Shown one piece after another: positions 25,918 through 61,238 of a DNA stretch of 64,000 bases. The notes beneath the pieces were generated by a model, which was given only the letters and a program-made list of their open reading frames with translations, was not told where the DNA came from and made no database searches. How positions within the stretch are numbered: position 1 is the stretch's first letter; every line of letters starts with the position of its first letter. The position numbers and the translations under genes are program-made. The stretch comes from Acidobacteriota bacterium (GTDB taxonomy: Bacteria; Acidobacteriota; Terriglobia; Bryobacterales; Bryobacteraceae): assembly GCA_947470805.1 (NCBI GenBank), contig CANIVU010000029.1, positions 1,583-65,582 of the forward strand. Reading direction: 5' to 3'.

Positions 25918-26781
25918 TCAATCGTAGAGCAGCTCGGCATAGCGGCCGTCGGCGTTGAGCTTTGACTTCAGATCGAGCCACGGCTCCTTACCGCCAGCCA
26001 TCTCCTCCATCGCCACTTCGAACTTCGTTTCGGCGGCGGTGAGCCCGGCGACGTAGACGAAGGTCTTGGAGTCCTGCAGCATCTCCCAGATTTCGGCGGA
26101 GTTTTCGAGCAGCACGCGGTCGAGCGCGGGCGGCGCGTCGTAGTGCGGGCGGGGACTGATGGCTTCGAAGGCGCGGAAGGAACTCTGATCGTAGTAGAGC
26201 GCCAGATCCTTGCGGAAATCGTTCATGTAGAGCAGTTCCATGCCGCTCTTGGCACCGAAGAAGAGCCGTACTTTTCCCTGCCAGGCGCCGTGGCGCTGAT
26301 AGATGTGCTTGACGAAGGCACGGAAGGGGGCGATGCCGGTGCCGGCACCGACCATAAGGAGATTGGCATCGTCGTTCTGCGGCACTTCGAACTGCACGCC
26401 GTAGGGGCCGGTGATTTGAATGGGATCGCCTGGATTGGCATCGCACAGGAAGTTGGAAGCGCGCCCCGGGTAGCGCTCGCCGCTGATGTCATCGATGGAG
26501 AAGCAGCGGCGAACGCAGATGGAGATGGTATCGCCGCGGCCATCGTCGCCGCCGCGGGGGCTGGCGATGGAGTACAGGCGCAGATGGTGCTCGTTGCCGA
26601 ACTCGTGGGGGCCGGGGGCGAGAACACCGATGCTCTGGCCCTCGACGTAATCGAACGGCGTGTCGGGCAACCGGAGCACCAAGTGGCGCACCTCCGCCTC
26701 CCAACCCAGGGGCGTAATCCGCTCGCTACTGACAAGCGTTGTCGTGTAGGAGTGATTCAGATCGTATTCATTCAGTCTCAT
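25918..26781 (-). CDS. Plant-type ferredoxin-NADP+ reductase
   Basis: YVEGQSIGVLAPG...LRLYSIASPRGGDD...ISICVRR...ITGPYG...LLMVGAGTGIAPFRAF matches the FNR FAD/NADP signature. The start overlaps the upstream stop (ATGA at 26778-26781). Confidence 0.87.
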   Translation of the reverse strand: MRLNEYDLNHSYTTTLVSSERITPLGWEAEVRHLVLRLPDTPFDYVEGQSIGVLAPGPHEFGNEHHLRLYSIASPRGGDDGRGDTISICVRRCFSIDDISGERYPGRASNFLCDANPGDPIQITGPYGVQFEVPQNDDANLLMVGAGTGIAPFRAFVKHIYQRHGAWQGKVRLFFGAKSGMELLYMNDFRKDLALYYDQSSFRAFEAISPRPHYDAPPALDRVLLENSAEIWEMLQDSKTFVYVAGLTAAETKFEVAMEEMAGGKEPWLDLKSKLNADGRYAELLYD

Positions 26782-26990
26782 CTTGCCTCTCCCAATTCCG
26801 CCTTATCCGTGTGGCAACTGCCTTTGTTGGCGCAACCACCGCCGCAGCCGTGGAGCATAAAGTCCAGAACGTCCTTGTCCGGGTTCCGGCACCCGGAGCG
26901 CCGGCGAACCACGTTCTGTAGAAAGACCCAGAAACAGAGGACGGCAAATAATCCGCCCACCGCACGCAGTAGATTCCAGAGTTCGCTCAT
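26778..26990 (-). CDS. 70-aa Cys-rich single-TM micro-protein
   Basis: MSELWNLLRAVGGLFAVLCFWVFLQNVVRRRSGCRNPDKDVLDFMLHGCGGGCANKGSCHTDKAELGEAR. In the track it is hidden as the tail of the spurious 238-aa ORF 26778..27494. ATGA overlaps at both ends, with rnfA and with FNR. Confidence 0.6.
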   Translation of the reverse strand: MSELWNLLRAVGGLFAVLCFWVFLQNVVRRRSGCRNPDKDVLDFMLHGCGGGCANKGSCHTDKAELGEAR

Positions 26991-27571
26991 CCGCCACCTC
27001 CCATACCGGCGAAGCCCATGAAGGCCATCGAAAGCACGCTGGCCAGCACTAGCGTGAGGGCGGTGCCGCGGGCGAGGCTGGAAATGTCGGAAAGTTCCGT
27101 GCGTTCCCGGACCAGCGCGAGCAGGCACATGGCCATGCAGTAACCGCCGCTGGCCGACAGCGCAAAGACGGTGCTTTGTACGAAGTTGTAGTTGCGTGCC
27201 GTTTGAAAGAGCGGCACGGCGAGCACGGCGCAATTGGTGGTGATCAGCGGCAGGTAGACGCCGAGTTCGCGGAACAGCGCCGGGCTGTTCTTCTTGATGA
27301 ACATCTCCGTCAACTGCACAGTGGCGGCGATGATGACGATGTAGACGATTAACCGCAGATATTCGACGTGGAGCATGACCAGCACGATGTTCATGCCGTA
27401 GGAAAGAATGCCGCTGACGGTGATGACGAACATGACCGAGACGCCCATGCGCCATGCAGTGGAGAACTTCGCCGACAGGCCCAGGAACGAACACATCCCG
27501 AGAAAAACGCAGAGAACGAAGTTATTGATGAGGAACGAGTCGACGAATATGTGACCTAGTGATTCATTCAT
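26987..27571 (-). CDS. rnfA: Rnf complex subunit A
   Basis: ORF trimmed to ATG 27571. MNESLGHIFVDSFLINNFVLCVFLGMCSFLG..., a six-TM RnfA/NqrE-type protein. Confidence 0.92.
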   Translation of the reverse strand: MNESLGHIFVDSFLINNFVLCVFLGMCSFLGLSAKFSTAWRMGVSVMFVITVSGILSYGMNIVLVMLHVEYLRLIVYIVIIAATVQLTEMFIKKNSPALFRELGVYLPLITTNCAVLAVPLFQTARNYNFVQSTVFALSASGGYCMAMCLLALVRERTELSDISSLARGTALTLVLASVLSMAFMGFAGMGGGG

Positions 27572-28224
27572 GAGCGCACCTCGGCGGGCTGGATTTCCGT
27601 GAGACCGGCTTGCAGTTGCCGTTGCTTCCGTTCCCGGAAGGTGGCGAAGACGAGCAGCCAGATGGCGAGCGAAATGAAGCCTCCGGGAGGGAGGAGGAAC
27701 AGCACCCACGGCTCAAAGTTGGGGCCAAACAGCGGGATGCTGAGGAACGTGCCGGCGCCCAGAACTTCGCGCACCGTACCCAGGCAGGTGAGGCCGAAGG
27801 CGAAGCCCAGGCCCATACCGGCGCCGTCCATCATGGAGGGGATAACGGGCTTCTTGGCGGCGAAGGCTTCGGCGCGTTCGAGTACCAGGCAGTTGGCGAC
27901 GATCAATGGGATGAACGGCCCGAGCGCCTTGTACACCGGGATGCTGATGGCTTTGACGAGATAATCCGTCACCGTGACGGCAGTGGCGATGATGGCGATA
28001 TAAGTCGCGATGCGCACCTGTTTGGGGACGTGTTTGCGGATGGCGGCGATGAGGCCGTTGGAGATCACCAGAACGAAGGCGGTGGCCAGGCCCATGGCGA
28101 TGGCGTTGCGCACGCTATTGGTGATGGCGAGCGTCGGGCACATGCCGAGGATCTGGACGAATGTCGGGTTCTGACGCCAGAGGCCGTTCAGAAAGGGGTT
28201 CGGAGGTGTGGTGGTGGTGCTCAT
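27568..28224 (-). CDS. rnfE: Rnf complex subunit E
   Basis: GLWRQNPTFVQILGMCPTLAITNSVRNAIAMG, an RnfE/NqrD-type protein. Confidence 0.92.
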   Translation of the reverse strand: MSTTTTPPNPFLNGLWRQNPTFVQILGMCPTLAITNSVRNAIAMGLATAFVLVISNGLIAAIRKHVPKQVRIATYIAIIATAVTVTDYLVKAISIPVYKALGPFIPLIVANCLVLERAEAFAAKKPVIPSMMDGAGMGLGFAFGLTCLGTVREVLGAGTFLSIPLFGPNFEPWVLFLLPPGGFISLAIWLLVFATFRERKQRQLQAGLTEIQPAEVRS

Positions 28225-28847
28225 CAGTTTCCTCGCTCAATGCGCTCTTTGTTGCGCTGAATGACGGGCTCCATTTCGCGGATGCTGTTGGCCAGCAGGC
28301 GGCCGACGGCGCGGGAGGAGATGGTGGCGCCGGAGATGGCGTCGATCTCCCAGGGGTTCTTTTTGGTGCCGTGCTTGACGGCGGTGATGGGGTGGCTGGC
28401 GTCGAGCGCCTTGAAGTTGGCCAGGAAGTCCGGATCGGTACCGATCTTGTTGCCGAGGCCGGGCGTTTCCCGCATTTCGACGACGGTGAAGCCGGTGACG
28501 GTTTTGGCCGAGGGCGAGTAGGCGTACATGGCCGAGATGATGTCAGCGTAGCCGCGTTCATTGGCTTCGAGCACGACGCCGAGCAGTTTGCCGCCTTTGT
28601 CGTAACCGGCAAAGAGGCGTTTGGCGGTAGTCTCGCCGCCGGTGTGAACGGCGAGTTCGCCGGAGGGCTCGATGACGTAGACCGTCTGGTGATCCATGCC
28701 GGGGAGCAGTTGGATGAGCGACTCACGGAGGATGGTTTCCTGATTGATCTGGATGCGGCCGTGGGTGACGATGTTGACGCCGACGATCAGCATGCCGCAG
28801 ATCAGGGAGAGCACACCGAGAAATCGAATCATGACGACGCTGTTCAT
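28224..28847 (-). CDS. rnfG: Rnf complex subunit G (FMN-binding)
   Basis: ORF trimmed to ATG 28847. N-terminal TM anchor. Flavinylation motif AISGATISSRAV. Confidence 0.88.
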   Translation of the reverse strand: MNSVVMIRFLGVLSLICGMLIVGVNIVTHGRIQINQETILRESLIQLLPGMDHQTVYVIEPSGELAVHTGGETTAKRLFAGYDKGGKLLGVVLEANERGYADIISAMYAYSPSAKTVTGFTVVEMRETPGLGNKIGTDPDFLANFKALDASHPITAVKHGTKKNPWEIDAISGATISSRAVGRLLANSIREMEPVIQRNKERIERGN

Positions 28848-29902
28848 ATGGCACCTTCCGGTTTGCGCGCGCCGTAGGGGCGGGGCGGCGTCAGGCGGTC
28901 GATCAGCGGGGACAGCGCGTTGCCGAGAAGGATGGCGCACATGACGCCTTCGGCGAGGCCGCCGAGGTTGCGGATGAGGATGGTCAACACGCCCATCAGC
29001 ACGCCGTAGATCCACATGCCGCGCGGGGTGACCGGGGAGGCCACCGGGTCCGTCGCCATGAAGGTGGCGCCGAGGAGCAGGCCGCCGGTGAAGAGCATGA
29101 AGAGCGGGTCGGGGTAGCGGGCAGGGTCAAGGAGATGGAACCCCGCCGCCGCTGCCACCGCCCCGCTCAGCATCGCTACGGGGATGCGCCAATCCATCAT
29201 GTGGCGGAAGACCAGGTAGGCGCCGCAGAGGAGAATCAGGAACCCCGGGATTTCGCCCGATGAGCCCGCGCGCTGGCCCCAGAACATGGGCCAGGGGTCG
29301 GTGTAGATGTGGTCGAATTTTTGGAGGACTAATGGAGTGGCGCCGGTGAAGCCGTCGACGCGGACCTGCGAGATCCAGTCGGCGATGGGCGGCGGTTTCA
29401 TCAGCGGCATGGTCCAGGTGGTGGGGACGAATTCGGCGAAGCGCGCTTTGGCTAGGGTCGGCGTGTAGGTGGTGATGGCCACCGGGAAAGCCGCTTGCAG
29501 AAAGGCGCGGCCGACGAGGGCCGGATTGAAGACATTAGACCCGAGACCGCCGAAGAGCAGTTTGCCGGGGGCGATGGCGACCAGGCTGCCGAGCAACGCC
29601 ATCCACAGCGGGAAGCCGGGAGGGAGAGTGAGCCCGAGCAACAGGCCGGTGATGGCGGCGCTGTAGTCGTTGACGGTGGAGGCATTGCCATTGGCGCGGC
29701 AGAGAATATGTTCGGCCAGCACGCAACCGGCGGTGGTTGTCGCGAGCAGCACCAGGGCGCTGAGGCCGAACTGCCAAACGGAGAACGCGGCCAGCGGCAG
29801 CATGGCGTAGACCACGTTCCGCATGATCATGTCCACGGAAAGCGGCCCGTGAAGATGCGGGGACGTGCGGACTTCGATGATGGTCGTGGTGACACCGCTC
29901 AT
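28844..29902 (-). CDS. rnfD: Rnf complex subunit D
   Basis: ORF trimmed to ATG 29902. SPHLHGPLSVDMIMRNVVYAMLP and FTGATPL (flavinylation-type motif). Polytopic. Confidence 0.92.
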   Translation of the reverse strand: MSGVTTTIIEVRTSPHLHGPLSVDMIMRNVVYAMLPLAAFSVWQFGLSALVLLATTTAGCVLAEHILCRANGNASTVNDYSAAITGLLLGLTLPPGFPLWMALLGSLVAIAPGKLLFGGLGSNVFNPALVGRAFLQAAFPVAITTYTPTLAKARFAEFVPTTWTMPLMKPPPIADWISQVRVDGFTGATPLVLQKFDHIYTDPWPMFWGQRAGSSGEIPGFLILLCGAYLVFRHMMDWRIPVAMLSGAVAAAAGFHLLDPARYPDPLFMLFTGGLLLGATFMATDPVASPVTPRGMWIYGVLMGVLTILIRNLGGLAEGVMCAILLGNALSPLIDRLTPPRPYGARKPEGAI

Positions 29903-31224
29903 GCGCGCGCCTTCCTTTCCCGGTTCATCTGCTTGGCGACTCGGAAATACTGCACCAGCGGGATGTGCGCCGGACAGACATAGCTGCAACAGGCGCATTC
30001 AAAACAGTCGTTCAAGTGGTAGATCTCTTCCATCTCTTCGTAGCGATCCTTGCGCGCCAGCAGGCCCAGGTGGGAGGGGTCCAGATGCAGCGGGCAGACA
30101 TCGACGCAGGCCGCGCAGTGGATGCAGGGGTAGATAGTTTCGGCCTTCTTCGCGGGCATCACCAGGACGCCGGTAACGCCTTTGGTGAGGGGGATGTCGA
30201 AGGAGCCGACGGCCGGGCCCATCATGGGGCCGCCGAGGATGATCGACGCCGCCTGGTCGGTGCAACCGGCTTGTTCCAGCACCCAGCGCAACGGCGTGCC
30301 GAGGGGGATGAGGTAGTTGCCGGGCTTGCTGACGGCGGGTCCGGTGACGGTGACGACGCGCTCAATGAGCCCGTGGCGGTGCGGCAGCAGTTCGCCGATC
30401 TGGGCGAGCGTGGCGACGTTGAAGACGGCGAGGCCGACATCGGCGGGCAGACCACCGGTGGGGATTTCGCGGCCGAGCAACACTTTGACCAGCATCTTCT
30501 CGGCGCCTTGCGGGTACTTGGCGGCGACGGCTTCGATGGTGATATCAGGCCGGTCCGCATTGGCTTTGCGGAGCGCGGCGATGGCGTCCGGCTTGTTGTC
30601 TTCGACGCCGATGACGGCGCGTTCGACACCGAGCGCCCGCATCACCACACGCGTGCCGTGTAGCACCTGTTTGGGGTACTCCACCATCACGCGATGATCA
30701 GTGGTGAGATACGGTTCGCACTCGCAACCATTGACGACGACGGTATCGATATGCCGTCCCTGCGGGGGCTTCAATTTGACGTGTGTCGGGAATGCCGCGC
30801 CGCCCAGACCCACGACGCCGGTCGCCTGCACGGCGGCGATGACTTCAGCCGGCGACATCTGTGTGATGTCCTGATCGGAGCCGTAGAGCACCTCCTGGCT
30901 GGCGCTGGGATACGGCTTGATGTAGATGGCCATGGTCAACTCGCCGCGGGCGCTGGGCGCCGGGGCGATGCGTTCCACGCGGCCGGTGGCGGGGGCGTGC
31001 ATGGGGACGCTCATGAAGCCATCGGCTTCAGCGATCGGTTCACCTCGCACCACTTCCTGACCCTCGCGAACGATGGCCTTGGCCGGTTTGCCGGCGTGTT
31101 GCAACAGCGGGACGACGAGCAATGGCGGGAACGGCAGACGCCGAATCGGCAGATGCGCGGTCTGCTCCTTGTTTTCCGGGACATGTACGCCCCGCCATAA
31201 CCGTTTTGTTCCGAAGAGGTTCAT
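29899..31224 (-). CDS. rnfC: Rnf complex subunit C
   Basis: VPLLQHAGKPAKAIVREGQEVVRGEPIA. NADH-site-like GLGGAAFPTHVKL. Two 4Fe-4S motifs, CIHCAACVDVCP and CFECACCSYVCP. Confidence 0.92.
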   Translation of the reverse strand: MNLFGTKRLWRGVHVPENKEQTAHLPIRRLPFPPLLVVPLLQHAGKPAKAIVREGQEVVRGEPIAEADGFMSVPMHAPATGRVERIAPAPSARGELTMAIYIKPYPSASQEVLYGSDQDITQMSPAEVIAAVQATGVVGLGGAAFPTHVKLKPPQGRHIDTVVVNGCECEPYLTTDHRVMVEYPKQVLHGTRVVMRALGVERAVIGVEDNKPDAIAALRKANADRPDITIEAVAAKYPQGAEKMLVKVLLGREIPTGGLPADVGLAVFNVATLAQIGELLPHRHGLIERVVTVTGPAVSKPGNYLIPLGTPLRWVLEQAGCTDQAASIILGGPMMGPAVGSFDIPLTKGVTGVLVMPAKKAETIYPCIHCAACVDVCPLHLDPSHLGLLARKDRYEEMEEIYHLNDCFECACCSYVCPAHIPLVQYFRVAKQMNRERKARA

Positions 31225-31243
31225 GCGAGTGACTCCTGCGGCA

Positions 31244-34200
31244 CTAGTTGTACTTCGCCGCGCGCTTCACGAGCTTCTCCAAATCCTTCTCCGACGGGTC
31301 CATGGGCTGCCCGGGGTGAATGACCTGCGCCGTGCACTTTTCGGCCGCTTTCACCAGATCGCGATACGGTCCGCCCTTCGCGTTCTTGATAATGGCCTGT
31401 TTGTTCTCGTTGTAGGCGAAGATGCGGTTGTTGATCCGCATGCACTCGTCGCAAGAGGTGCACATGGAGGATTCGATCCAAGGTGCGCTGGAGGCCGCGG
31501 CGGGGGCGGCGGGAGCCGGGGCGGGGGCGACCGATGTCGCTGTAGGGACCGGGGCGGCGACGGCCTTGACGGCCATCGGCGCCGGAGCCGCGCCGTCACC
31601 GAGCAGGCTGCCATTGGCAACCATCTCCAGCAACTGCGCCGCAATGGACTGCGCGAATTCGCTGCGCGCCTGTTCGGCGATCGCCGTTGTGTCGACGGCG
31701 GGCCGGACGCCTGCCAGCGACTTCAAGAGCCGCCAGAAGTGGCGTCGATCCTCGCAGGAGTGAACCAACGGTTCGGCGGGAATCACGCGGATCAGCTTGT
31801 TCTTCTTGTTCACCGCCCAGATGTAGGGGAACTTCCCTTCCCTGTCGTCGGCTTCGAACTCTAGATACTCGGCGAGCGGGACCATGTTGTCGTTCCAGGC
31901 GTCGCGCGGTACCGTGCGGAACTGTTTGCGGAAGCGGCCTTCGGTCATGGCGAAGTCGGCGAAGGTCATCGGGACCTCCATTTCGCCGGGCGCGCCGTTC
32001 TCGTCCTGATACTTCAGGGTATAGGTCGGCCAGTCGTCGTCGAGCGAGGGATTGCCGTCGAGGTTCAAGCACTCTTCCGGCAGGTTTCCCTTGTCGGGGT
32101 TGTAGCGGAGGATGGGGTAGGCCCGCGATTCGACGGCGAGCTTGCTCTGGAATTCCGCCAGATCGTCGGCGATTCCGTGCTCCGGCATGCAGGGGCTGTA
32201 GATGTTGAACAGCGCTGGCCGGCGAGCGTTCAGGCCTTCGACGAACGATTCGATCAGGTGCGACGTATTCGCCGTCGTGCCCTGGGCGATGAAGGTCGTT
32301 CGGTGCGCCATGCCGATGAGCGCGATCTCCTTTCGGATCTCTTCCTTGCCGTGGAACGCTTTGCCGTACTGAGCCATATCGGAAACCTGACCCGTAAAGC
32401 CGGACGTGCATGCCTGGCCGCCGGTGTTCGAATAGACCTGCGTATCGAGCACCAACACCTTGATCGGCTTACCGGACATCATCATGCGCGACAGGTTTTG
32501 GAAGCCGATATCGTACATCGCGCCATCGCCGCCGATGGAGACGACAGGCGGGCAGAGGTGGAACTCCTCGTCGGTGAACTGCTTCCAGTTGAAGTAGGTG
32601 AAGAACTCGCCGTGCTTCTCTTTGCGGTAACCGCCGTCGAGTTCCATCTCGGCCATCCGGATGGCGACGAAGCCTTCGGCCATGCGGGCCATGTGGCCTT
32701 CAAAGATACCCATCGCCATGGACGGCGAATCCTGGAAGAGGTGGTTCGTCCACGGGAACGGGTAGGGGTTGAAGGGGTAGGTCGACGCCCATACGGACGT
32801 GCAACCGGTGGAGTTGACGATGCCCATGCTGGCGCGGCCGCGGCGGCCGGCACCGTCGGTGTACTGCCAGCGCAGGTGCTTCAACTTGGCGATTAGCTGC
32901 GACACCCAGCGGAGCCATTCCGGATCGATGGTCTTGCCGGCGTGGCGGGCGTCGAGTTGTTCAGAGAAACTCGCCAGCGTGACATCGGCGTTGTGCAGAT
33001 GGTCGAGCGCGTTGGCCACACGGGCGTCGTCACTGAGATCGATCGTGGCCGCGAGCTTCAACCGCGTGTGCTGGTCGAGCCGGGCAATCAGATCGTCGAT
33101 CTTCTCAATCTGCCGGGCCACGCGCGGTTGCATCAGCGCTTCCGCGGTCGCAACAAAGAGGTGCACCACGGTCTTCTCACCACAGCCCAGGCAGGCGCCG
33201 TCGCCGCCCACCATGCCCATGTAGTTCTTCCTGTCGAGCAGCAGCGTATGCAGCGCGCCGATGCCCTCGTCGAGGCTATCGATGCGTATGAACTCGGGGG
33301 CCGTTGTCGGCAGGGACTGCCACAGATCCCAGTTACGCCGCAGCTTCTCCGTCGATTCCGGCGTCTGCGTCACCGGCTTCAGCGCGTTGTCGTTACAGAC
33401 CTTGACACACTCCATGCAGCCCTTACAGGCGAACGGATTGACGGTAATCGACAACAGACCGCCGGATCCCTGCTGCTTTTTCTCGCGCGCCGTCCAGAAG
33501 GGCTGCGGCGTGGCAAAGGCAAAGTCACCGACCGCGGCGCGCAGGTTGTGCAGTTCCTCGGTGAGTTCCTTCTTCTCGGTGTTTTCGAGCGGATAGGCCG
33601 CCAGCAAATCTTCCATCGCGGCGTCGAGCATCTTGCCGACGTCGGGCCTGCTCATGCCGTCGCCGAGCTTCGCGCGCAGCTTCTGGTCCAAGGTACGAAT
33701 GGCTCGGGGCAACTGCCTGGCTGGCTGGCCGTTGGCGATCACTTTCTTCATCGCCGTTTCCAACACGGCCAGCACAGAGTGCACGAGGCCGGGAATCGCG
33801 CTGTCGGGACAAATCGTGTAGCAGGCGCCGCACGCCGTGCAGTTCTCCGGCAGCCATTCGGGATGCTCGAACCGCACGCCGGTCATGTCGCGGAACAGAG
33901 CCGTGGTGGCGGGGATGAAGCTGAGGCCGATAAACGGGTCGGCCAGATTGTCGTTCCCGCGGCCGGTGGCGTAAAAGGTGCCGGTCTGCTCCCAGAAGCG
34001 GTGGATGTCGGTGGTCGCCGTCGCCGCGGCCACTTGCCGCTGCAGCACCATCGGCACATCCGGCGCCTTGCGAACGGCGAGCGGAGTGGCGTTGATTTTT
34101 TTGTCTTTAATCTCCTTCACCTCGTCGAATCCGCGGCGCACGACGCGCACGTTGTCTTCTACCACTCGCGCGCCCTTGGTGCCGAACTTGTGCTCGAGTT

Positions 34201-36184
34201 GCAAGCGGATGGCCTGGAACAGATTCTGATCGGTCAACTTCGCCTGGCCCATCAACGGCGAGGCCGCAAAGAAGGCGCCCTGGAAGGCGTTGCCCTGCAT
34301 GCGGAACTGCAGTTCGACGTCAGTGGCCTCTTCGCGGGCGATTTTAAAGGCGTCCAGGTAGTAGAGGTGAATCTCGTTGTCGATCAGAATCCGCTGGAAC
34401 TTCTCAGGAATCTGTTGCCAGACGTCGGCCGGATCGGTATGCGCGCTCTGCAAAATGAACACGCCGCCGCGCTTCAAACCAGCCAGAGGATTGGAGTGCA
34501 GGAACACGTTCGGATCGGGCGAGAGCACCACGTCCACGTAGAAGTAGTCGCAGTTGACGCGAATCGGCTCGGGCGCCGCGGCCAGGTAGTAGGTGGTCGG
34601 TTGCCCCTTCTTTTCGGAACCGTATTTCGGGTTGGCTTTGATGTGATAGCCCAACAGGTCAAACAGCGTCATCGCCAGGTTTTTGCCTGTCGTGATCGCG
34701 CCCCAGCCGCCCACCGAATGGAACCGCACAGTGATGCTGTTTTTCGGCATCAGGTTCGGATTCTCGCTGCCATGGACGGCCAGCGCCTTCAGCCCCGGAT
34801 AGGCGTCGGCCACCTGGATCTGATGGATCTCCTGTTTCGGTGTGAACGGCTTGTCGTGCACGAAGTCGATCGACAGGTAGAAAAACCTCCGTTTGCCGCC
34901 GTTCGGCAACATGTTTTCAATCGCGCCAATCAGCCCTTCCGGCTGTAAGTCGCGGCTGCCCAGGCCGAACGAACCGGAATACAGCGGCGGCATATCTTCG
35001 GCTTTTTTATAGCTCGCGTAGCCTTCGTGCACCACGCCGGAGCGGCCATTCTCCACGCAGCGGCCCAGCGCCGCGCGCACTTCACGGATCAGCGGCAAAT
35101 CTTCGGCCAGCGGTTGATCCACGCGTTCCAGTACGGTCACGCCCTTGCGGCCCTGCAGCAAGGCGCCCAGCACATCGCCGGGGAACGGGCGGAACATCGT
35201 AAGGTTCACGACGCCCACTTTCAGCTTCCGGGTCTCGCGCAGATAGTCGGCCACAACCTCGGCCGTCACCAGCATGCTGCCCATTCCAAGGATCAGGTAT
35301 TCAGCGTCTTCGGCGCGATAGGTGGACACGCGCTGATAGCGGCGCCCGGTCAGCGCGTAGAACTCCTCCATCGCCTGATCGGTGATCCCTGCAATATGGG
35401 CGAAGAAGTAGGGCCGTTGCGCGGCCACGCTCTGCATGTAGGCGTCCTGGTTTTGCACCGTCCCGATCATCACGGGATTGTCCACCGTCCACAGCTCCGG
35501 AATGCGGCGCCGTTGCGGCCCGTAGAGGAGCCGTTGCGCCGGGGTCGGCGTGTCGATGATGTCGTCCGGCCGGCCCAGGTATTCCTGAATCAACTCGCGC
35601 TCCGGTAGCAGCAGCGATTCGATCAAGTGCGTGGTAAGAAACCCGTCCTGCGCGCAGATGCCCGGCGTCAACGACAGTTCGGCGATCCGGTGCGAGATGA
35701 TGTTCAAATCGCACACTTCCTGCGCGCTCTTGCCAAAGAGTTGGAAGAACCCGGTGTCATCAATGCAGTGATAGTCGTCGTGGCCGGCGTGCACATTCAG
35801 CGTCGATTTCGTCATCGCGCGGCAGCCCATGTTCAGTACATAAGTGAGCCGCTTGCCGACGGCCGCGTACAGCGACTCGTGCATGTAGGCAATGCCCTGC
35901 CCCGACGAAAAATTGGTCGCGCGCAGCCCGGTCATCGAAAGCCCGGCCGTCACGGCGGCGGCGGCATGTTCGCCTTCCGGTTCAATGAAAATCAACGGGC
36001 GGCCGGAGATGTTGATGTGGCCTTTGGCCGACTCTTCAGCCCAGTATTCGCCCATCTGCGTGGAGGGAGTGATCGGGTATGCACCCGCGGCGTCGCTCGA
36101 CTCCCGTTCGCACATAACGACGGCGGTGTTCCCATCCATCGCCTGCCGCACGCCGGGGTAACGGAAGCTCTGTTTGCCATTCAT
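31244..36184 (-). CDS. Giant (1646 aa) pyruvate/2-oxoacid:ferredoxin oxidoreductase-like protein with C-terminal ferredoxin-like domain
   Basis: Core motifs: AYPITPSTQMGEYW; VRFHSVGGWGAITTGKNLA; CTACGACYTICP and CKGCMECVKVCN; GDGACLGCGEKT; STGCTSVWAS; GGDGAMYDIGFQNL...LDTQVYSNTGGQ. These are followed by an Ala/Pro linker and then CTSCDECMRINN...AAEKCTAQVIHPG. Confidence 0.9.
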   Translation of the reverse strand: MNGKQSFRYPGVRQAMDGNTAVVMCERESSDAAGAYPITPSTQMGEYWAEESAKGHINISGRPLIFIEPEGEHAAAAVTAGLSMTGLRATNFSSGQGIAYMHESLYAAVGKRLTYVLNMGCRAMTKSTLNVHAGHDDYHCIDDTGFFQLFGKSAQEVCDLNIISHRIAELSLTPGICAQDGFLTTHLIESLLLPERELIQEYLGRPDDIIDTPTPAQRLLYGPQRRRIPELWTVDNPVMIGTVQNQDAYMQSVAAQRPYFFAHIAGITDQAMEEFYALTGRRYQRVSTYRAEDAEYLILGMGSMLVTAEVVADYLRETRKLKVGVVNLTMFRPFPGDVLGALLQGRKGVTVLERVDQPLAEDLPLIREVRAALGRCVENGRSGVVHEGYASYKKAEDMPPLYSGSFGLGSRDLQPEGLIGAIENMLPNGGKRRFFYLSIDFVHDKPFTPKQEIHQIQVADAYPGLKALAVHGSENPNLMPKNSITVRFHSVGGWGAITTGKNLAMTLFDLLGYHIKANPKYGSEKKGQPTTYYLAAAPEPIRVNCDYFYVDVVLSPDPNVFLHSNPLAGLKRGGVFILQSAHTDPADVWQQIPEKFQRILIDNEIHLYYLDAFKIAREEATDVELQFRMQGNAFQGAFFAASPLMGQAKLTDQNLFQAIRLQLEHKFGTKGARVVEDNVRVVRRGFDEVKEIKDKKINATPLAVRKAPDVPMVLQRQVAAATATTDIHRFWEQTGTFYATGRGNDNLADPFIGLSFIPATTALFRDMTGVRFEHPEWLPENCTACGACYTICPDSAIPGLVHSVLAVLETAMKKVIANGQPARQLPRAIRTLDQKLRAKLGDGMSRPDVGKMLDAAMEDLLAAYPLENTEKKELTEELHNLRAAVGDFAFATPQPFWTAREKKQQGSGGLLSITVNPFACKGCMECVKVCNDNALKPVTQTPESTEKLRRNWDLWQSLPTTAPEFIRIDSLDEGIGALHTLLLDRKNYMGMVGGDGACLGCGEKTVVHLFVATAEALMQPRVARQIEKIDDLIARLDQHTRLKLAATIDLSDDARVANALDHLHNADVTLASFSEQLDARHAGKTIDPEWLRWVSQLIAKLKHLRWQYTDGAGRRGRASMGIVNSTGCTSVWASTYPFNPYPFPWTNHLFQDSPSMAMGIFEGHMARMAEGFVAIRMAEMELDGGYRKEKHGEFFTYFNWKQFTDEEFHLCPPVVSIGGDGAMYDIGFQNLSRMMMSGKPIKVLVLDTQVYSNTGGQACTSGFTGQVSDMAQYGKAFHGKEEIRKEIALIGMAHRTTFIAQGTTANTSHLIESFVEGLNARRPALFNIYSPCMPEHGIADDLAEFQSKLAVESRAYPILRYNPDKGNLPEECLNLDGNPSLDDDWPTYTLKYQDENGAPGEMEVPMTFADFAMTEGRFRKQFRTVPRDAWNDNMVPLAEYLEFEADDREGKFPYIWAVNKKNKLIRVIPAEPLVHSCEDRRHFWRLLKSLAGVRPAVDTTAIAEQARSEFAQSIAAQLLEMVANGSLLGDGAAPAPMAVKAVAAPVPTATSVAPAPAPAAPAAASSAPWIESSMCTSCDECMRINNRIFAYNENKQAIIKNAKGGPYRDLVKAAEKCTAQVIHPGQPMDPSEKDLEKLVKRAAKYN

Positions 36185-37101
36185 GAGTGCACTCCTTGAG
36201 TTGAACTATTTGCCCGCTGCAGAGGCAGGTCCGCCTCGGCCACAGGTAACGGCGATTGCCGTGTAATTCGCTTTGCGTCCAGGCCGCGCATGGGCGGCTT
36301 GTCCTTTTCCATCCACACGATTGCCCCGGTCGGGCAGCGCTGGATGGGCGTTGGTGTCGCCAGCGCGTTTCGCGCATAGTCGACCACCGCCAGATTGTTG
36401 ACAATTTGAATCAGCCCCGCAGGCGCATCCGCGGCGCAACGTCCGCACGCCGTGCAGGCAACTTCGCAATCCAACTCCGACTGCTGCCCGTCGGCTAGAT
36501 TCTTACAGGCTACCCACAGGCGGTGGCTCACCAGATGCAAAGAAAACAGTTGTTTCGGGCAGATGTCGACACAATCGCCACACGCGGTGCACATGGAAGG
36601 CATCACGACGGGCAGGCTGTGACGATCCATCGTGATCGCCTTGAAATCGCAGACCCGCTCGCAATCCCCCAGGCCCAGGCACCCCCAACTGCAACCCTTG
36701 CCACCACCGTTGACCAATGCTGCCGCACGGCAGGTCTGCAAACCCACGTATTGAGCCCGGTGGCGCGCCACATGGGGCCCGCCAGCACAGGCTAATCGCG
36801 CCACCCGGCGTTCTTCGGTCCCGGCGTCGATCTGCAATAACGCGGCGATCGCCTGCACCCCATCCGGCGTGCTAACCGTGCACTTGCCCGGCGCGATTTC
36901 GCCCTTTACCGCCTTCTCCGCGAACGCCCGGCAACCCGCGCAGCCGCAGGCGCCGCAGTTGGCCTTCGGCAGCATCCCCTCGACTTCATCGATTCGAGGA
37001 TCCTCATACACATACAACTTCCTGTCGGCATAAGCGAGCATCGCCGCCAGTGCGACCCCGATCCCGCCCATCACCCCGCCGGCAACCAGGAACTCATTCA
37101 T
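36181..37101 (-). CDS. rnfB: Rnf complex subunit B (polyferredoxin)
   Basis: N-terminal TM at VAGGVMGGIGVALAAMLAY. Motifs: CGACGCAGCRAFAEKA, then CSWGCLGLGDCERVC, CTACGDCVDICP and CTACGRCAADAP. The stop overlaps the PFOR start (ATGA 36181-36184). Confidence 0.88.
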   Translation of the reverse strand: MNEFLVAGGVMGGIGVALAAMLAYADRKLYVYEDPRIDEVEGMLPKANCGACGCAGCRAFAEKAVKGEIAPGKCTVSTPDGVQAIAALLQIDAGTEERRVARLACAGGPHVARHRAQYVGLQTCRAAALVNGGGKGCSWGCLGLGDCERVCDFKAITMDRHSLPVVMPSMCTACGDCVDICPKQLFSLHLVSHRLWVACKNLADGQQSELDCEVACTACGRCAADAPAGLIQIVNNLAVVDYARNALATPTPIQRCPTGAIVWMEKDKPPMRGLDAKRITRQSPLPVAEADLPLQRANSSTQGVHS

Positions 37102-37344
37102 ACTTTCACCCTCCTCGTCGCGCCATCCCGCCCGGAGACGGTGGGGGATATGCCCCGGTGGCCGGGGGCCCCATCGGCCCGCTCACCCGAAAGGGCGCCG
37201 GAAACGATAGAAAAAGTCCTGATTTCGGCCTTTTTTGTGGTTATCCATGTCCTCATAGTGGCTCTGTCCGCAGCTTTTCCTTCGCAAGATCAGGGCCAAA
37301 CCGGCGATTCCGTTTGGCATTCAACTTGCACCCCACCCCACCGT
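37102..37344. promoter_or_regulatory. Divergent control region between rnfB operon and apbE-kor operon
   Basis: 243-bp non-coding gap between two outward-facing start codons. It contains the only AT-rich stretch nearby (gatagaaaaagtcctgatttcggccttttttgtggttatcc). No specific operator recognised. Confidence 0.3.
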
Positions 37345-38370
37345 ATGGTCAACATCTGGCGACGTACCGCGCTCTCCCTCGCCATCGCCGGCGGCCTCTT
37401 CGGCCTCCGGTTTGTTCCCTGGGAAAAGCCGGTCTCCACCATCCGCCTCAGCCGCCCGCTCATGGGCACGCTATGGACCATTGAAGTGTTCGACGAGGCC
37501 CGCCCCGCCGCCGCCCGCGCGGCCATTGATCAGGCCTACGCCGAACTGAACCGCATCGATCGCTTGATGAGCGAGTGGAAGCCCGAGTCCCCTATCTCAC
37601 AGGTCAACGCCGCGGCCGGCCGCCATCCCGTCGAGGTCCCCGCCGAACTCCGGGAATTGATCGAACGCAGCATCCGCTACAGCCGCATCACCGAGGGCGC
37701 CTTTGACATTACATGGCGCGGCATGGGATCTATCTGGAAATTCGACGATACCTTCCGACCGCCCACCAAACAAGCCGTCGAAACAGCCCGCCGCAACGTG
37801 GACTACCGTGCCATTCAAATCCACGGCAACCGCGTTTTCCTTCCGAAATCCACGATGAGCATCGGCCTTGGCGGCATTGCCAAAGGCTACGCGGTGGACC
37901 GCGCCGCGGCCGTTCTCGCGCAAGCCGGCTTTACCAATACGATGATCGATGGCGGTGGCGACGTCCGCGTGTCCGGCGCCCGCAACGGCCAACCCTGGCG
38001 GCTGGGCATTCAACATCCCCGCCGCGAACACGGCCAACTGCTCGCCGCCGTCCAACCGCGCAATCAGTCGCTGGTTACCTCCGGCGATTATGAACGCTTC
38101 CGTATCGTCAACAACGTCCGGTACCACCACATTATCGACGTCCGCACCGGCTGGCCCGCCAACGCCGCCAGTTCCGTCAGCGTGCTCGCCCCCACCGCCG
38201 AACAGGGCGTCGTACTCGCCAAAGGCATCTTTATCCTGGGCCCGGAAAAGGGCCTCGCCCTCGCCCATACCGAAGGGGTGGAGGCGCTCCTCATCGATCC
38301 AGGCGGCCGCCTCTTCGCCACCTCCGGATTCCAGAAAGTTCTCGAATTCCCCCAACAGGAAGACAAATAG
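37345..38370 (+). CDS. apbE: FAD:protein FMN transferase (flavin transferase ApbE)
   Basis: ORF trimmed to ATG 37345. TM anchor followed by RPLMGTLWTIEV...AELNRIDRLMSEW.PESPISQVN and GGIAKGYAVD. Confidence 0.88.
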   Translation: MVNIWRRTALSLAIAGGLFGLRFVPWEKPVSTIRLSRPLMGTLWTIEVFDEARPAAARAAIDQAYAELNRIDRLMSEWKPESPISQVNAAAGRHPVEVPAELRELIERSIRYSRITEGAFDITWRGMGSIWKFDDTFRPPTKQAVETARRNVDYRAIQIHGNRVFLPKSTMSIGLGGIAKGYAVDRAAAVLAQAGFTNTMIDGGGDVRVSGARNGQPWRLGIQHPRREHGQLLAAVQPRNQSLVTSGDYERFRIVNNVRYHHIIDVRTGWPANAASSVSVLAPTAEQGVVLAKGIFILGPEKGLALAHTEGVEALLIDPGGRLFATSGFQKVLEFPQQEDK

Positions 38371-38372
38371 AC

Positions 38373-40271
38373 ATGTCCACATCCACCGTCGACGCCGATA
38401 TCGCCACACCCGCCAGCGCCGTCCAGATTGTCGATCAACACATCGTCGAGATCGTCAGTGATTCCGGCGAAGGCGCGCAAACCTGCGGCCAGATGTTTGC
38501 CGACCTTTGCGCGCGCAACGGCAACGGCATTTGGACCGTCGAGATCATCCCGGCCGAAATCGAACCCCCCAGCCGTTCCCGCGCCGGCGCCAGCGGCAAC
38601 CGCATCCGCCTTGGTTCCAAGCCAGTCACCAACGCCGGCGATTGCGCCGATATCGTCGTCGCGCTGAACGAACAGGTTCTCTACAGCCGGATCGACGCCG
38701 GAGCACTCCGCCCAGGCACCACCGTCTTCGTCGACAAAACATGGGCCGAAAGTCCCGACGAGGACATCCGCCGCCGCTACGCCGAAGCCATCACCGACTT
38801 CAACGCCCGGTCCTACTTTGTCGTCGAATCACCCATCGAAGCCGAGTGCCGCAAACACACCGACGACCCGAAAAAGGGCAAAAACATGTGGGTTCTCGGC
38901 TTGTTGTGCGCCATCTATGATCTGGACCGCTCCAGCGTCGGTGCCAATATCGCCAAGCGCTTCGCTAAGAAGGGCGAAGCCGTCATCAACAAAAACCTCG
39001 CTCTTTTCACCGACGGCTACGACTGGGCCCTCGCTCACGTCCGCCAGCGCTACCGGATCCCCGCGCAGAAACACACGCAGCCAATGGTTGTCATGAATGG
39101 CAATCAGGCAATCGGCCTCGGCATCATGGCGGCCGGCATCGAAGTCTGCTCCATGTATCCCATCACCCCGGCAACCTCCGCCTCCCACTTCCTGGCGCAA
39201 GCCCTCCAGGACGCCGGCGGCTTCGTCCACCAGGCCGAGGATGAGATCGCCGCCATCGGGTTCGCCATCGGCGCCTCCTACGCCGGCAAGACTGCGGTCA
39301 CGATCACCTCCGGCCCCGGCCTCGCACTCAAGACCGAGTTCCTCGGCTACGCCGGAATGGCCGAAGTCCCGTTGGTCATCGTCGTGGTTCAACGCGGCGG
39401 CCCCTCCACCGGGCTGCCCACCAAGATCGAACAGGGCGACCTGCTCGCCGCGCTCTACGCATCCCCCGGCGACAGCCCGAAGATCATCCTCGCCCCGGCC
39501 ACCATTGAAGAGTGTTTCCACTTCATGATCACCGCCCGCAAGCTCGCCGAAGACTTCCGCGGGCCAGTCATGGTGCTCTCCGATGCCAATCTCGCCACCG
39601 GCCAGCAGCCCTTCCCAAAACCCCAACTGCAAACCGATTGGCTCGCGGCTCCCATCGACCAGGCCGCCTGGGATCAAACGGTCCCGCCCTTCGCCTGGGA
39701 CGCGGAGACCGGTCTCTCCAAACGCCCCATTCCCGGCCAGCGCGGCGGCGAATACGTGTTGACAGGCCTCGCGCACGACGAGGAAAGCCACGTCGCCTAC
39801 GAATCGGCCATCAACCAAAAAACTATGGAAATGCGCAGCCGCAAACTCGCGGTGCTGCAAAGCGTGCTGCGGCCGCCCAAGGTCTACGGCGACCCCGAAG
39901 GCGACCTGCTTGTCATCGGCTGGGGCTCCACGCTTGGCTGTATTGAAGAGGCCGTCGACCAGTTGCGTGCCGAAGGCAAGCGCGTCTCCTCCATCCACCT
40001 GCGCTTCCTCTCGCCCATGGAACCGGGGCTCAAACAGATCTTCCAGAAGTTTCGCCGCGTCATGACCGTGGAGGTGAATTATAGCGACCCTGTCGGGGCA
40101 CCCTACATCACCCCCGAATCCCGGCGCTATTCGCAACTGGCGCAACTGCTGCGCTCCCAAACCCTCGTCGACATCGATTGCTGGGGGCAAGTCCCCGGCA
40201 GCCCCATCCCCCCGTCGAAGATCGCCGCCGAACTTCGCCGCCGCCTCGACGCGATCACCAAGGAGAACTAA
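38373..40271 (+). CDS. korA: 2-oxoacid (2-oxoglutarate):ferredoxin oxidoreductase alpha subunit (gamma-alpha fusion type)
   Basis: Gamma-like segment IVSDSGEGAQTCGQMF...IVVALNEQ, then alpha segment MNGNQAIGLGIMAAGIEVCSMYPITPATSASHFL. It starts 2 nt after the apbE stop. Confidence 0.9.
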   Translation: MSTSTVDADIATPASAVQIVDQHIVEIVSDSGEGAQTCGQMFADLCARNGNGIWTVEIIPAEIEPPSRSRAGASGNRIRLGSKPVTNAGDCADIVVALNEQVLYSRIDAGALRPGTTVFVDKTWAESPDEDIRRRYAEAITDFNARSYFVVESPIEAECRKHTDDPKKGKNMWVLGLLCAIYDLDRSSVGANIAKRFAKKGEAVINKNLALFTDGYDWALAHVRQRYRIPAQKHTQPMVVMNGNQAIGLGIMAAGIEVCSMYPITPATSASHFLAQALQDAGGFVHQAEDEIAAIGFAIGASYAGKTAVTITSGPGLALKTEFLGYAGMAEVPLVIVVVQRGGPSTGLPTKIEQGDLLAALYASPGDSPKIILAPATIEECFHFMITARKLAEDFRGPVMVLSDANLATGQQPFPKPQLQTDWLAAPIDQAAWDQTVPPFAWDAETGLSKRPIPGQRGGEYVLTGLAHDEESHVAYESAINQKTMEMRSRKLAVLQSVLRPPKVYGDPEGDLLVIGWGSTLGCIEEAVDQLRAEGKRVSSIHLRFLSPMEPGLKQIFQKFRRVMTVEVNYSDPVGAPYITPESRRYSQLAQLLRSQTLVDIDCWGQVPGSPIPPSKIAAELRRRLDAITKEN

Positions 40272-40273
40272 CC

Positions 40274-41227
40274 ATGCAAGGTCTACACAAAGAGTGGGAA
40301 GCCGAAGCCGCCCCCCGTACCTGCGCCATCGAAGACTACCAGGGCGCCGCGGCCCGCTGGTGCCCCGGCTGCGGGGATCATGCCGTTCTCAACGCCGTCC
40401 AGCGTTTGGCGCGTGATAAACAGCTCCCGCCGGAGAAGACCGTCTGCGTCTCCGGTATCGGCTGCTCCAGCCGCTTCCCCCACTACATGAGCACCTACGG
40501 GTTCCACGGTCTTCATGGCCGGGCGTTTCCCGTGGCCTGCGGCGTCCGCTCCCGCCGTCCGGATCTGCACATGTTCGTTGTTACCGGCGATGGCGACTGC
40601 TGCGCCATCGGCACAGCGCACTGGATCCACACCATTCGCTACAACATGGATCTCACCATCCTGCTGCTCGACAACAACATCTACGGTCTCACCAAGAACC
40701 AAACCTCACCCACCACGCGCACCGGTGAGAAATCCAACACCCACCCGCGCGGCAACGTCCTGCCACCGCTCAATCCGCTATCGGTTACTCTCGGCGTCAC
40801 CAACGCCTCCTTCGTCGCCCAAACAGTGGACTGGAACCCGCCGCATCTCTACAACACCATTCGCGCCGCCTACGAACACAAAGGCACCTCCTTCGTGCGC
40901 GTCCTGCAACGCTGCCCGCACTTCACCTCCCACATCTTCGCCGAAGCGCAGAGCGACATGAGCCAGTGCCTGCTGCTGCTCGATGACGCCGGCATTCCGC
41001 TCGACCCCGGCCTGCAGAGACTCTTCCCCAATCGCGCCGCGCACAATCCGTGCGATCTCGCCTCCGCGCGGGCCATCGCCAGCCGCGAGGATGTCTATCC
41101 CGTCGGCCTGCTCTACCGTGACGAAAACGCCGCCCGCTACGACCTCCAAACGTCGCAGGGACTCGGCAAATCGCAGGCCGAAAAAGTCGCCGCCACCGAA
41201 AAGTGGCTCAGCAAGTACGAACTGTAG
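40274..41227 (+). CDS. korB: 2-oxoacid:ferredoxin oxidoreductase beta (TPP-binding) subunit
   Basis: ORF trimmed to ATG 40274. Motifs: WCPGCGDHAVL, GIGCSSRF, and VVTGDGDCCAIG...LLLDNNIYGLTKNQ. Confidence 0.9.
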   Translation: MQGLHKEWEAEAAPRTCAIEDYQGAAARWCPGCGDHAVLNAVQRLARDKQLPPEKTVCVSGIGCSSRFPHYMSTYGFHGLHGRAFPVACGVRSRRPDLHMFVVTGDGDCCAIGTAHWIHTIRYNMDLTILLLDNNIYGLTKNQTSPTTRTGEKSNTHPRGNVLPPLNPLSVTLGVTNASFVAQTVDWNPPHLYNTIRAAYEHKGTSFVRVLQRCPHFTSHIFAEAQSDMSQCLLLLDDAGIPLDPGLQRLFPNRAAHNPCDLASARAIASREDVYPVGLLYRDENAARYDLQTSQGLGKSQAEKVAATEKWLSKYEL

Positions 41228-43169: not shown

Positions 43170-43190
43170 AAAACTGCGATAATCGCGTGC

Positions 43191-61219: not shown

Positions 61220-61238
61220 GCACGCAACCCGATATCAT

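Follow-up and report, generated by a model that had tools for sequence, protein, structure and literature searches.

What is the role of a giant gene for a pyruvate:ferredoxin oxidoreductase (PFOR)-like enzyme that stands between rnfB and rnfC, and of a plant-type ferredoxin-NAD(P)+ reductase (FNR) gene that closes the same run of genes? This question is raised by a stretch of 64,000 nucleotides from an Acidobacteriota bacterium of the family Bryobacteraceae (assembly GCA_947470805.1, contig CANIVU010000029.1, positions 1,583 to 65,582), which is called the window here and in which all coordinates are given unless another locus is named. The initial annotation of this DNA had regarded the arrangement as unusual. 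We found, on the contrary, that many genomes carry it and that the long PFOR, which is directly followed by rnfC in 66 of 68 loci, normally occurs in this setting. The functional coupling of PFOR, Rnf and FNR, proposed in the same annotation, is strongly supported by this synteny, which is conserved across phyla. The parts of the cluster are ordinary and its wiring is unusual, and the whole is common in genomes and strongly conserved. Our results suggest, with a probability of roughly one half, that the cluster would encode a dedicated and reversible module linking pyruvate/acetyl-CoA, a tethered ferredoxin, the Rnf ion gradient and NAD(P)H.

Organization of the operon

The nine open reading frames of the locus lie on the minus strand and encode RnfB, the PFOR-like enzyme of 1646 aa, RnfC, RnfD, RnfG, RnfE and RnfA, a Cys-rich membrane protein of 70 aa and, as the last cistron, the plant-type FNR. 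All nine start with ATG, and each cistron has a GGAG/GAGG-like Shine-Dalgarno motif within the 3' end of the preceding gene. Neighboring genes overlap by ATGA at 36181-36184, 29899-29902, 28844-28847, 27568-27571, 26987-26990 and 26778-26781, and by TGATG at 28222-28226, where rnfE (27568-28224) and the rnfG stop codon have one base in common. The sole spacer, of 19 nt, separates the stop codon of the PFOR gene (31244) from the start codon of rnfC (31224). The same gene boundaries were obtained from independent gene calls in 16 public contigs of metagenomes or metagenome-assembled genomes (MAGs) that carry an identical 1646-aa protein, and the nearest labelled genomes are MAGs of Bryobacteraceae or 'Candidatus Sulfopaludibacter' with 96-97% identity, which assigns the window to an uncultured Acidobacterium. 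The nine genes, their coordinates and their overlaps, as first annotated, were all confirmed in this way, and every gene identity held. The layout indicates a single predicted operon. The four-base overlaps themselves are ordinary in operons; what goes beyond chance is the gene order conserved across phyla.

Conservation of the gene cluster

One genome per GTDB species was scanned for two peptide motifs that are typical of the long PFOR. The scan gave at least 600 stretches with at least 538 confirmed relatives, and the best 80, all of which are at least 61% identical over the full length, were examined; the denominators of all counts are the loci whose contig permits the test. The rnfCDGEA genes were present in 59 of 60 loci, and an FNR gene followed in 51 of 59. 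The rnfB gene was adjacent in 57 of 58 loci, either directly upstream (42/58) or after the FNR gene (15/58), the latter in Bacteroidota and their relatives, in which the order is PFOR-rnfCDGEA-small protein-FNR-rnfB. About eight phyla are represented among the 80 loci, including Acidobacteriota, Gammaproteobacteria, Bacteroidota, Myxococcota, Hydrogenedentota, Planctomycetota and Calditrichota. The gammaproteobacterial carriers are Woeseiaceae, Haliea, Sedimenticola, Thiothrix and Thiodiazotropha, and those among the Bacteroidota are Algoriphagus, Cecembia, Aquiflexum, Saprospiraceae and Flavobacteriaceae. Many of the carriers belong to taxa known as aerobes, microaerobes or facultative organisms.

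Further examples with small rearrangements were seen in Endoriftia, in Flagellimonas and on a contig labelled Verrucomicrobia. On the last of these (L085), a four-subunit 2-oxoacid oxidoreductase is encoded ahead of the cluster, which ends with rnfD. A JGI contig of 666 kb (L086) has the order rnfB-PFOR-rnfCDG-FNR with a convergent apbE, and its rnfE-rnfA pair is found 5 kb upstream on the other strand. The complete genome NZ_CP173170.1, labelled Methylotuvimicrobium sp. KM1 (L060), carries the Bacteroidota-type order PFOR-rnfCDGEA-small protein-FNR-rnfB, and its small protein is, by eye, nearer to those of Cecembia and Aquiflexum than to the gammaproteobacterial ones. This points to a horizontal transfer or to a mislabelled record.

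An FNR/CRP-type box (TTGAT-N4-ATCAA, at least 9 of 10 matches) was observed upstream of rnfB in seven gammaproteobacterial loci (L020, L021, L031, L051, L057, L058 and L079), and four of the boxes are located at -129 to -141. Its rate there is 0.32 per kb versus 0.064 per kb in the rest of the loci, which is about five times the background. No such box was found upstream of rnfB in the window. This observation hints at low-oxygen control of the gammaproteobacterial clusters that carry the box.

The long PFOR and its tethered ferredoxin

The 1646-aa protein (31244-36184, minus strand) is a long-form single-chain 2-oxoacid:ferredoxin oxidoreductase, in which POR_N (8e-43), POR (2e-29), PFOR_II, TPP_enzyme_C and Fer4 domains were recognized. 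The closest solved structures are the PFOR of M. thermoacetica (6cin, 1e-90) and that of D. africanus (1b0p), and no solved structure is nearer to it than these ordinary PFORs. Like these homodimeric single-chain enzymes (6CIN and 1B0P), the long PFOR has the same domain order, a thiamine pyrophosphate (TPP) motif of the form GDG...N and three sets of Cys residues for [4Fe-4S] clusters. The GDG at residues 1219-1221 and the Cys sets 782/785/788/792, 920/923/926/930 and 998/1001/1128/1259 are invariant in 13 relatives. Moreover, Thr39 and Arg122 align with conserved Thr and Arg positions of the M. thermoacetica PFOR, which we take to be substrate-binding, like T31 and R114 of the D. africanus PFOR.

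The protein is about 450 residues longer than the two structurally known enzymes, and the additional length is made up of two insertions, a C-terminal extension, a linker and a ferredoxin domain. Insertion 1, of about 118 aa (residues 798-915; 33440-33793, minus strand), separates the internal ferredoxin domain's two cluster motifs and is outside the phmmer alignment to 6cin, the aligned blocks of which end at residue 798 and restart at 891. Insertion 2 (residues 1005-1120; 32825-33172, minus strand) lies within the TPP-binding domain. Both insertions are present in all 78 family members aligned, with insertion 1 being less conserved.

The C-terminal end of the protein (residues 1569-1646; 31247-31480, minus strand) is a single-cluster ferredoxin domain, which is conserved across the family and has invariant Cys residues at 1575, 1578, 1581 and 1617. 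It is tethered by an Ala/Pro-rich flexible linker of 44 residues (1525-1568; 31481-31612, minus strand) with the sequence GSLLGDGAAPAPMAVKAVAAPVPTATSVAPAPAPAAPAAASSAP, and it is here that the alignment of the 78 members varies most and has the most gaps. The domain matched Pfam Fer4_13 at 3.9e-4 and the D. africanus ferredoxin I (1DAX) from end to end at E 7e-4. In an AlphaFold model covering residues 1366-1646, the linker is disordered (pLDDT below 50), while the ferredoxin domain has a pLDDT of 84-93; its top fold match is again D. africanus ferredoxin I (1fxr_A, TM 0.83, rmsd 1.0 Å), followed by other single-cluster ferredoxins. The extension at residues 1366-1528 was modelled with moderate to low confidence and gave no fold match. 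The tethered ferredoxin that had been proposed for this gene is, therefore, real by both sequence and predicted fold, and it is located behind a low-confidence linker. This differs from D. africanus, in which ferredoxin I is a separate protein from the PFOR.

The C-terminal extension with the ferredoxin module was also observed at the C-terminus of many proteins of about 750-880 aa, with 36-44% identity, and 578 clusters (at 50% identity) match it at E<=1e-30. It suggests a split or shorter architecture of the long PFOR family.

The enzyme could also be simply a co-regulated neighbor of Rnf and FNR, all three working on a soluble ferredoxin pool with no dedicated channel, so that the C-terminal ferredoxin would be one extra internal cluster. 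It is true that PFOR and Rnf use soluble ferredoxin in known systems, and the sequence itself demonstrates no contacts between proteins. However, the long PFOR is near-obligately linked with rnf across phyla, an internal relay would hardly account for a ferredoxin whose linker is long, variable and disordered, and no separate small ferredoxin gene was called in about 20 kb of flanks around the operon. We consider this explanation improbable.

The Rnf complex

Pfam and NCBIfam searches showed that the genes of all six Rnf subunits are present. RnfB (36181-37101, minus strand, 306 aa), the poly-[4Fe-4S] subunit for ferredoxin entry, has an N-terminal membrane helix (hydrophobic segment at residues 4-22) and matched PF04060 (1.8e-11), Fer4 families and TIGR01944 (69.0 vs a cut-off of 68.7). 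RnfC (29899-31224, minus strand, 441 aa) is the NADH- and flavin mononucleotide (FMN)-binding subunit, which was recognized by TIGR01945 (494.7 vs 246), Complex1_51K (1.3e-53), RnfC_N, SLBB and Fer4. RnfD (28844-29902, minus strand, 352 aa) scored 290.7 with TIGR01946 (cut-off 207), and RnfE (27568-28224, minus strand, 218 aa) scored 229.7 with TIGR01948 (cut-off 213.4). While these four subunits reached the curated TIGRFAM cut-offs, the other two were a few bits short: RnfG (28224-28847, minus strand, 207 aa; FMN_bind 3.8e-15) scored 93.5 with TIGR01947 (cut-off 102), and RnfA (26987-27571, minus strand, 194 aa; PF02508 2.7e-49, 168 bits) scored 218.4 with TIGR01943 (cut-off 229.3). The features expected for covalent FMN binding were found together, as RnfG has the flavinylation motif SGAT at residues 172-175, RnfD has TGAT at residues 186-189, and an apbE gene is adjacent.

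In its six subunits, their domains, the flavinylation motifs and the ApbE partner, the complex is like the canonical Rnf of Acetobacterium woodii, Clostridium tetanomorphum and Azotobacter vinelandii (Rnf1), and the rnfCDGEA order is that of the clostridial and Bacteroides-type clusters. Unlike in the canonical clusters, a 4.9-kb oxidoreductase gene stands directly before rnfC, and the genes downstream of rnfA encode a conserved small Cys-rich membrane protein and an FNR. The route from PFOR through ferredoxin and Rnf to NADH is a textbook one in anaerobes, where the genes are unlinked and the ferredoxin is soluble. Prevotella is an example in which this route is established with unlinked genes (PMC10542786).

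The small membrane protein and the FNR

The 70-aa protein (26778-26990, minus strand) belongs to a conserved, unnamed family encoded after rnfA. It has one hydrophobic helix (residues 10-28) and five Cys residues, and no Pfam or NCBIfam family matched it. Of about 60 loci scanned, only two lack an open reading frame of this type directly behind rnfA, and the intact loci without FNR have it as well. In this family, W21, C49 and C53 are invariant and Q25 is nearly so, and there are 765 relatives in the database, nearly all of which are called 'hypothetical'. Two candidate identities were rejected. None of 34 members matched NqrM (PF04400) at E up to 1, where the HMMER filters drop most matches above about 0.1, and the likeness to NqrM is one of architecture only, namely, one helix and clustered Cys residues. 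FeoB_associated was matched by 2 of 34 members at 0.06 and Fer2 by 1 of 34, so that an identity as a FeoB-associated protein has no consistent match.

The last cistron (25918-26781, minus strand) encodes a plant/cyanobacterial-type ferredoxin-NAD(P)+ reductase of 287 aa with an NAD_binding_1 domain. It matched the PetH model at 1.2e-55, the C-terminal domain of BoxA at 3.3e-51 and FNRs of the Protein Data Bank at 9e-45. The characters of plant-type FNRs were found, namely, the flavin adenine dinucleotide motif RxYS (RLYS, 68-71), the nucleotide motif GTGxAPF (GTGIAPF, 147-153) and a C-terminal aromatic residue; all 56 cluster FNRs end in a Tyr (Phe in three) or have it one residue before the end. 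The curated PetH equivalog score was not reached (189 vs 600); this model also spans the cyanobacterial N-terminal linker domain, which is missing here. The Cys of the catalytic site of plant FNRs is Ala in the cluster FNR. At the 2'-phosphate site, the Ser is kept, the Arg is shifted by one residue (conserved SPRP, 209-212), and the Arg-x-Tyr stretch is replaced. The first assignment as an NADP+-dependent FNR stands for the plant/cyanobacterial type, supported by PetH and the solved structures, while the NADP+ specificity is plausible, the coenzyme being probably NADP(H).

Pyruvate:NADP+ oxidoreductase (PNO) of Euglena and Cryptosporidium and KorAB with a flavoprotein in Azoarcus evansii are known cases of 2-oxoacid oxidoreductases wired to NADP+. 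The present cluster is like them in that a 2-oxoacid:ferredoxin oxidoreductase is paired with an NAD(P)H flavoenzyme, and the net reaction leads to a nicotinamide. PNO differs by a fused cytochrome-P450-reductase-like domain, in place of which the cluster has a separate FNR, a tethered ferredoxin and an ion pump in the operon. The comparison with a split PNO, made in the initial annotation, holds as a functional resemblance; it fails in structure, as PFOR and flavoenzyme are encoded by separate genes with no fusion, and an FMN/flavodoxin domain is missing from the flavoenzyme. Another plant-type FNR module from bacteria is that of BoxA, the reductase of benzoyl-CoA epoxidase, whose partners are [4Fe-4S] ferredoxin domains. 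In BoxA the ferredoxin is fused at the N-terminus of the reductase itself, whereas here it is fused to the PFOR.

The Na+-NQR system also has to be compared. In Vibrio cholerae, the operon is nqrABCDEF-apbE-nqrM (PMC12174285). As in our cluster, homologous core genes in the same order are followed by an FNR-superfamily gene, and a small Cys-rich single-helix protein and ApbE take part. This raises the idea that the FNR, perhaps anchored by the small membrane protein, is the NAD(P)H-input subunit of the pump, in other words, that the complex is an RNF/NQR hybrid. According to a 2025 review, NQR arose from RNF through the acquisition of an FNR-family gene, probably in Bacteroidota (PMC12174285), and the Bacteroidota order, in which rnfB follows the FNR gene, would fit this, as would the parallel of rnfCDGEA-small protein-FNR to nqrABCDE-nqrF with an apbE nearby. 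The proteins themselves argue otherwise. NqrF consists of a membrane helix, an Fe-S domain and an FNR-like domain, while the cluster FNR has no membrane helix and scores far higher with PetH (189 bits) and with BoxA (175 bits) than with NqrF (51.9 vs a cut-off of 295). RnfB is kept, RnfC retains its FMN and Fe-S modules (Complex1_51K, Fer4), and RnfD scores as RnfD and not as NqrB; thus, no NqrF-type subunit, no cofactor-less NqrA and no absence of RnfB was found in the cluster. The small protein persists in the loci without FNR and has no consistent match to NqrM or Fer2. A hybrid pump is very unlikely on these grounds, and an intermediate between RNF and NQR was ruled out by the HMM scores and by the small protein being kept where the FNR is lacking.

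Loci without FNR and the link to pyruvate

Eight loci lack the FNR gene, one being interrupted and one degenerate. Among the six others, four have ppsA-ppsR, the genes of phosphoenolpyruvate (PEP) synthase and its regulator, one (Sedimenticola) has ppsR alone, and the Hydrogenedentota locus has neither. These genes sit directly after the small Cys-rich gene, in the place of the FNR, and Endoriftia also has ppsA in this position, after the small gene (loci L014, L045, L058 and L067; L030; L087, 10377-12764 of that locus). The carriers are Thiodiazotropha, Thiohalomonadaceae, Endoriftia and one Sedimenticola MAG. No close homologue of ppsA or ppsR was found in that position in any FNR-containing locus; in one of these (L036), a weak match to PEP synthase, with 24% identity, lies farther downstream. 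The presence of ppsA/ppsR in FNR-less loci, therefore, ties the long PFOR to pyruvate, and pyruvate as its substrate or product is reasonably supported by this gene context. The conserved Thr39 and Arg122, aligned to the PFOR of M. thermoacetica, point indirectly to pyruvate as well.

The enzyme might instead act on another 2-oxoacid, such as 2-oxoglutarate or a branched-chain or aromatic one, and feed Rnf likewise. Its score is far under the pyruvate equivalog cut-off, its relatives are named '2-oxoacid:acceptor oxidoreductase family protein' by NCBI, and its large insertions are specific to the family. Nevertheless, its nearest solved relatives are genuine PFORs, PEP synthase adjoins it in the FNR-less loci, and 2-oxoglutarate would be covered by the separate KorAB-type enzyme next door. 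We thus regard a different substrate as quite unlikely.

With pyruvate as the substrate, the gene content suggests two directions of use. In the FNR-less autotrophic sulfur oxidizers, it would be pyruvate synthesis feeding gluconeogenesis. In the FNR-containing loci, including the window, it would be pyruvate oxidation with Rnf and FNR as two outlets for ferredoxin.

It is also conceivable that the module is reversed in the present organism, that is, NADH with the gradient (through Rnf) and NADPH (through FNR) would reduce ferredoxin, the long PFOR would carboxylate acetyl-CoA, and KorAB would make 2-oxoglutarate, as a form of anaplerotic or mixotrophic CO2 assimilation. In line with this, ppsA-ppsR follows the cluster in Thiodiazotropha, Endoriftia and related sulfur oxidizers, and the korAB 2-oxoacid oxidoreductase adjoins it in the window. 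Root-type FNRs and BoxA run from NADPH to ferredoxin, which also speaks for it. The authors of an Ignavibacterium genome paper proposed Rnf-driven reduction of ferredoxin for PFOR and KFOR (PMC3362086). On the other hand, the ppsA loci are exactly those without FNR, which in a reductive mode would drain reduced ferredoxin, and there are no carbon-fixation genes in the 64-kb window. Moreover, Bryobacteraceae are known as heterotrophs. We consider the reversed use somewhat unlikely here.

Proposed mechanism

In the dedicated module that we favor, pyruvate and CoA would be oxidized at the TPP site of the long PFOR, and the electrons would pass over the three internal [4Fe-4S] clusters to the C-terminal single-cluster ferredoxin. 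The ferredoxin would move on its Ala/Pro arm of about 45 residues, like the lipoyl arms of pyruvate dehydrogenase, and deliver electrons to the poly-ferredoxin RnfB. Through Rnf, NAD+ would then be reduced at RnfC with the export of Na+ or H+. The FNR would serve as a second, soluble outlet or inlet between the same ferredoxin and a nicotinamide cofactor, probably NADP(H). The 70-aa membrane protein may be an Rnf-associated accessory or assembly factor, and ApbE is expected to flavinylate RnfG and RnfD. All of these steps would be reversible. For the FNR-containing Bryobacteraceae heterotroph, oxidation with conservation of energy is the likelier direction, whereas in the FNR-less sulfur oxidizers with ppsA the module probably runs backwards, as a gradient-driven pyruvate synthase. 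The domain content, the cofactor motifs, the tether and the gene linkage were observed directly, whereas the substrate, the direction, the docking of the ferredoxin on RnfB and on FNR, the choice of nicotinamide and of ion, and the tolerance of oxygen are inferred.

Several points weigh against this proposal. The long PFOR reaches 427.6 bits with TIGR02176, versus a cut-off of 911.35, and is matched in three stretches because of its insertions; as the equivalog score is missed, it was filed as a distinct long-form subfamily, and pyruvate as its substrate rests on indirect support. In the cluster FNR, the canonical positions for binding the 2'-phosphate of NADP in plant FNRs are shifted or absent. 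As Rnf and PFOR can each run either way, the case for oxidation depends only on the anticorrelation of FNR and ppsA and on presumed heterotrophy. The tethered ferredoxin may serve only inside the PFOR dimer and not contact RnfB or FNR. Finally, PFOR and Rnf are usually oxygen-sensitive or associated with anaerobes, yet many of the carriers are described as aerobes.

The divergent apbE-korAB operon and other genes of the window

The locus as initially annotated left out a divergent operon that is part of the same neighborhood. It starts with apbE (37345-38370, plus strand), encoding an FAD:protein FMN transferase (PF02424, 4.5e-81) and divergent from rnfB; an apbE gene adjoins the cluster in other Acidobacteria loci, too. 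It is followed by korA (38373-40271) and korB (40274-41227; together 38373-41227, plus strand), which encode a two-subunit 2-oxoacid:ferredoxin oxidoreductase (TIGR03710, 531 vs a cut-off of 483; TIGR02177, 232). Acidobacteria, Myxococcota, Algoriphagus and a MAG labelled Candidatus Multivoradales have korAB in linkage with their rnf-PFOR cluster.

After korB, a protein of 508 aa is encoded (41236-42762, plus strand), which corresponds, as a degenerate paralogue, to residues 1114-1488 of the long PFOR (BLASTP E 7e-21, 23% identity). The similarity spans the TPP-binding domain and the C-terminal extension; the GDG motif and the cluster Cys residues are lost, and no Pfam or NCBIfam family matched the protein. 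It recurs beside korAB in Acidobacteria, Myxococcota and one further MAG. In Myxococcota, korAB and the degenerate protein are on the same strand directly upstream of rnfB, and in Algoriphagus korAB is downstream and the degenerate protein is not within the region examined. In an Endoriftia transcriptome, korA, korB and a 'PFOR-like ferredoxin' were reported as consecutive, co-regulated genes of unassigned role (PMC11636981 supplement). This 'PFOR-like ferredoxin' beside korAB(3) is probably a degenerate protein of the 508-aa type.

The operon ends with a truncated globin of 128 aa and an S-adenosylmethionine methyltransferase (42783-43751, plus strand), both of which are also present in the nearest relatives (L005 and L015), and downstream it abuts a convergent transporter gene. 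The globin could have a role in oxygen handling near oxygen-sensitive enzymes.

The intergenic region of 243 nt between rnfB and apbE (37102-37344) presumably holds the promoters of both operons, and a sigma-70 consensus was not found in it. An imperfect 18-nt inverted repeat, GCAAGATCAGGGCCAAAC / GTTTGGCATTCAACTTGC, was observed at 37284-37329, just 5' of apbE, and is a possible operator. A consensus scan for internal promoters and terminators gave one promoter-like site (2.2 expected) and 14 terminator-like sites (9.1 ± 2.8 expected), which is no enrichment; nearly all of these sites are within coding sequence, and for an Acidobacterium such a scan is uninformative. Rfam detected no riboswitch or other RNA family in the whole window. 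A very strong strand bias was noted, with a GC skew down to -0.42 and sign flips near 19 kb and near 35 kb, and both the rnf and the apbE-korAB operons have a coding strand rich in C.

The other genes of the window are generic and include UvrB, a histidine kinase, an RND efflux pump, a Ser/Thr kinase and c-type cytochromes. Two large proteins of this cytochrome type are a RoxA-like one of 685 aa (19547-21604, minus strand) and one of 581 aa fused to a carbohydrate-binding CBM9 domain (60939-62684, plus strand).

Implications

No description of the layout was found in the open-access literature that was searched, and an earlier description in subscription journals is possible. It is not mentioned in the 2025 review on RNF and NQR (PMC12174285). 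In one genome paper, two extra genes of an rnf cluster were called "unclear", and these may be the small protein and the FNR. Three unnamed families are defined by the present work, namely, the long PFOR with a fused ferredoxin, the small Rnf-associated Cys-rich protein and the degenerate PFOR-domain protein beside korAB.

Soil Acidobacteria, Flavobacteriia, Woeseiaceae and chemosynthetic symbionts are usually modelled with a plain pyruvate dehydrogenase. We tentatively suggest that, in soil Acidobacteria, marine Flavobacteriia, Woeseiaceae and the symbionts Endoriftia and Thiodiazotropha, the long PFOR may dock on Rnf via its swinging-arm ferredoxin and form an ion-pumping pyruvate dehydrogenase or a gradient-driven pyruvate synthase, which would work independently of a soluble ferredoxin pool and in which the FNR would provide a branch to NADPH. 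When pyruvate is oxidized by way of ferredoxin and Rnf, energy is conserved that the ordinary pyruvate dehydrogenase wastes, and the reverse reaction allows a cell to fix CO2 into pyruvate with NADH and the membrane potential alone. If this is true, the cluster would be a natural self-contained system for the study and engineering of low-potential electron transfer, and such a hard-wired module across phyla and environments would alter the metabolic models of abundant soil, sediment and symbiotic bacteria.

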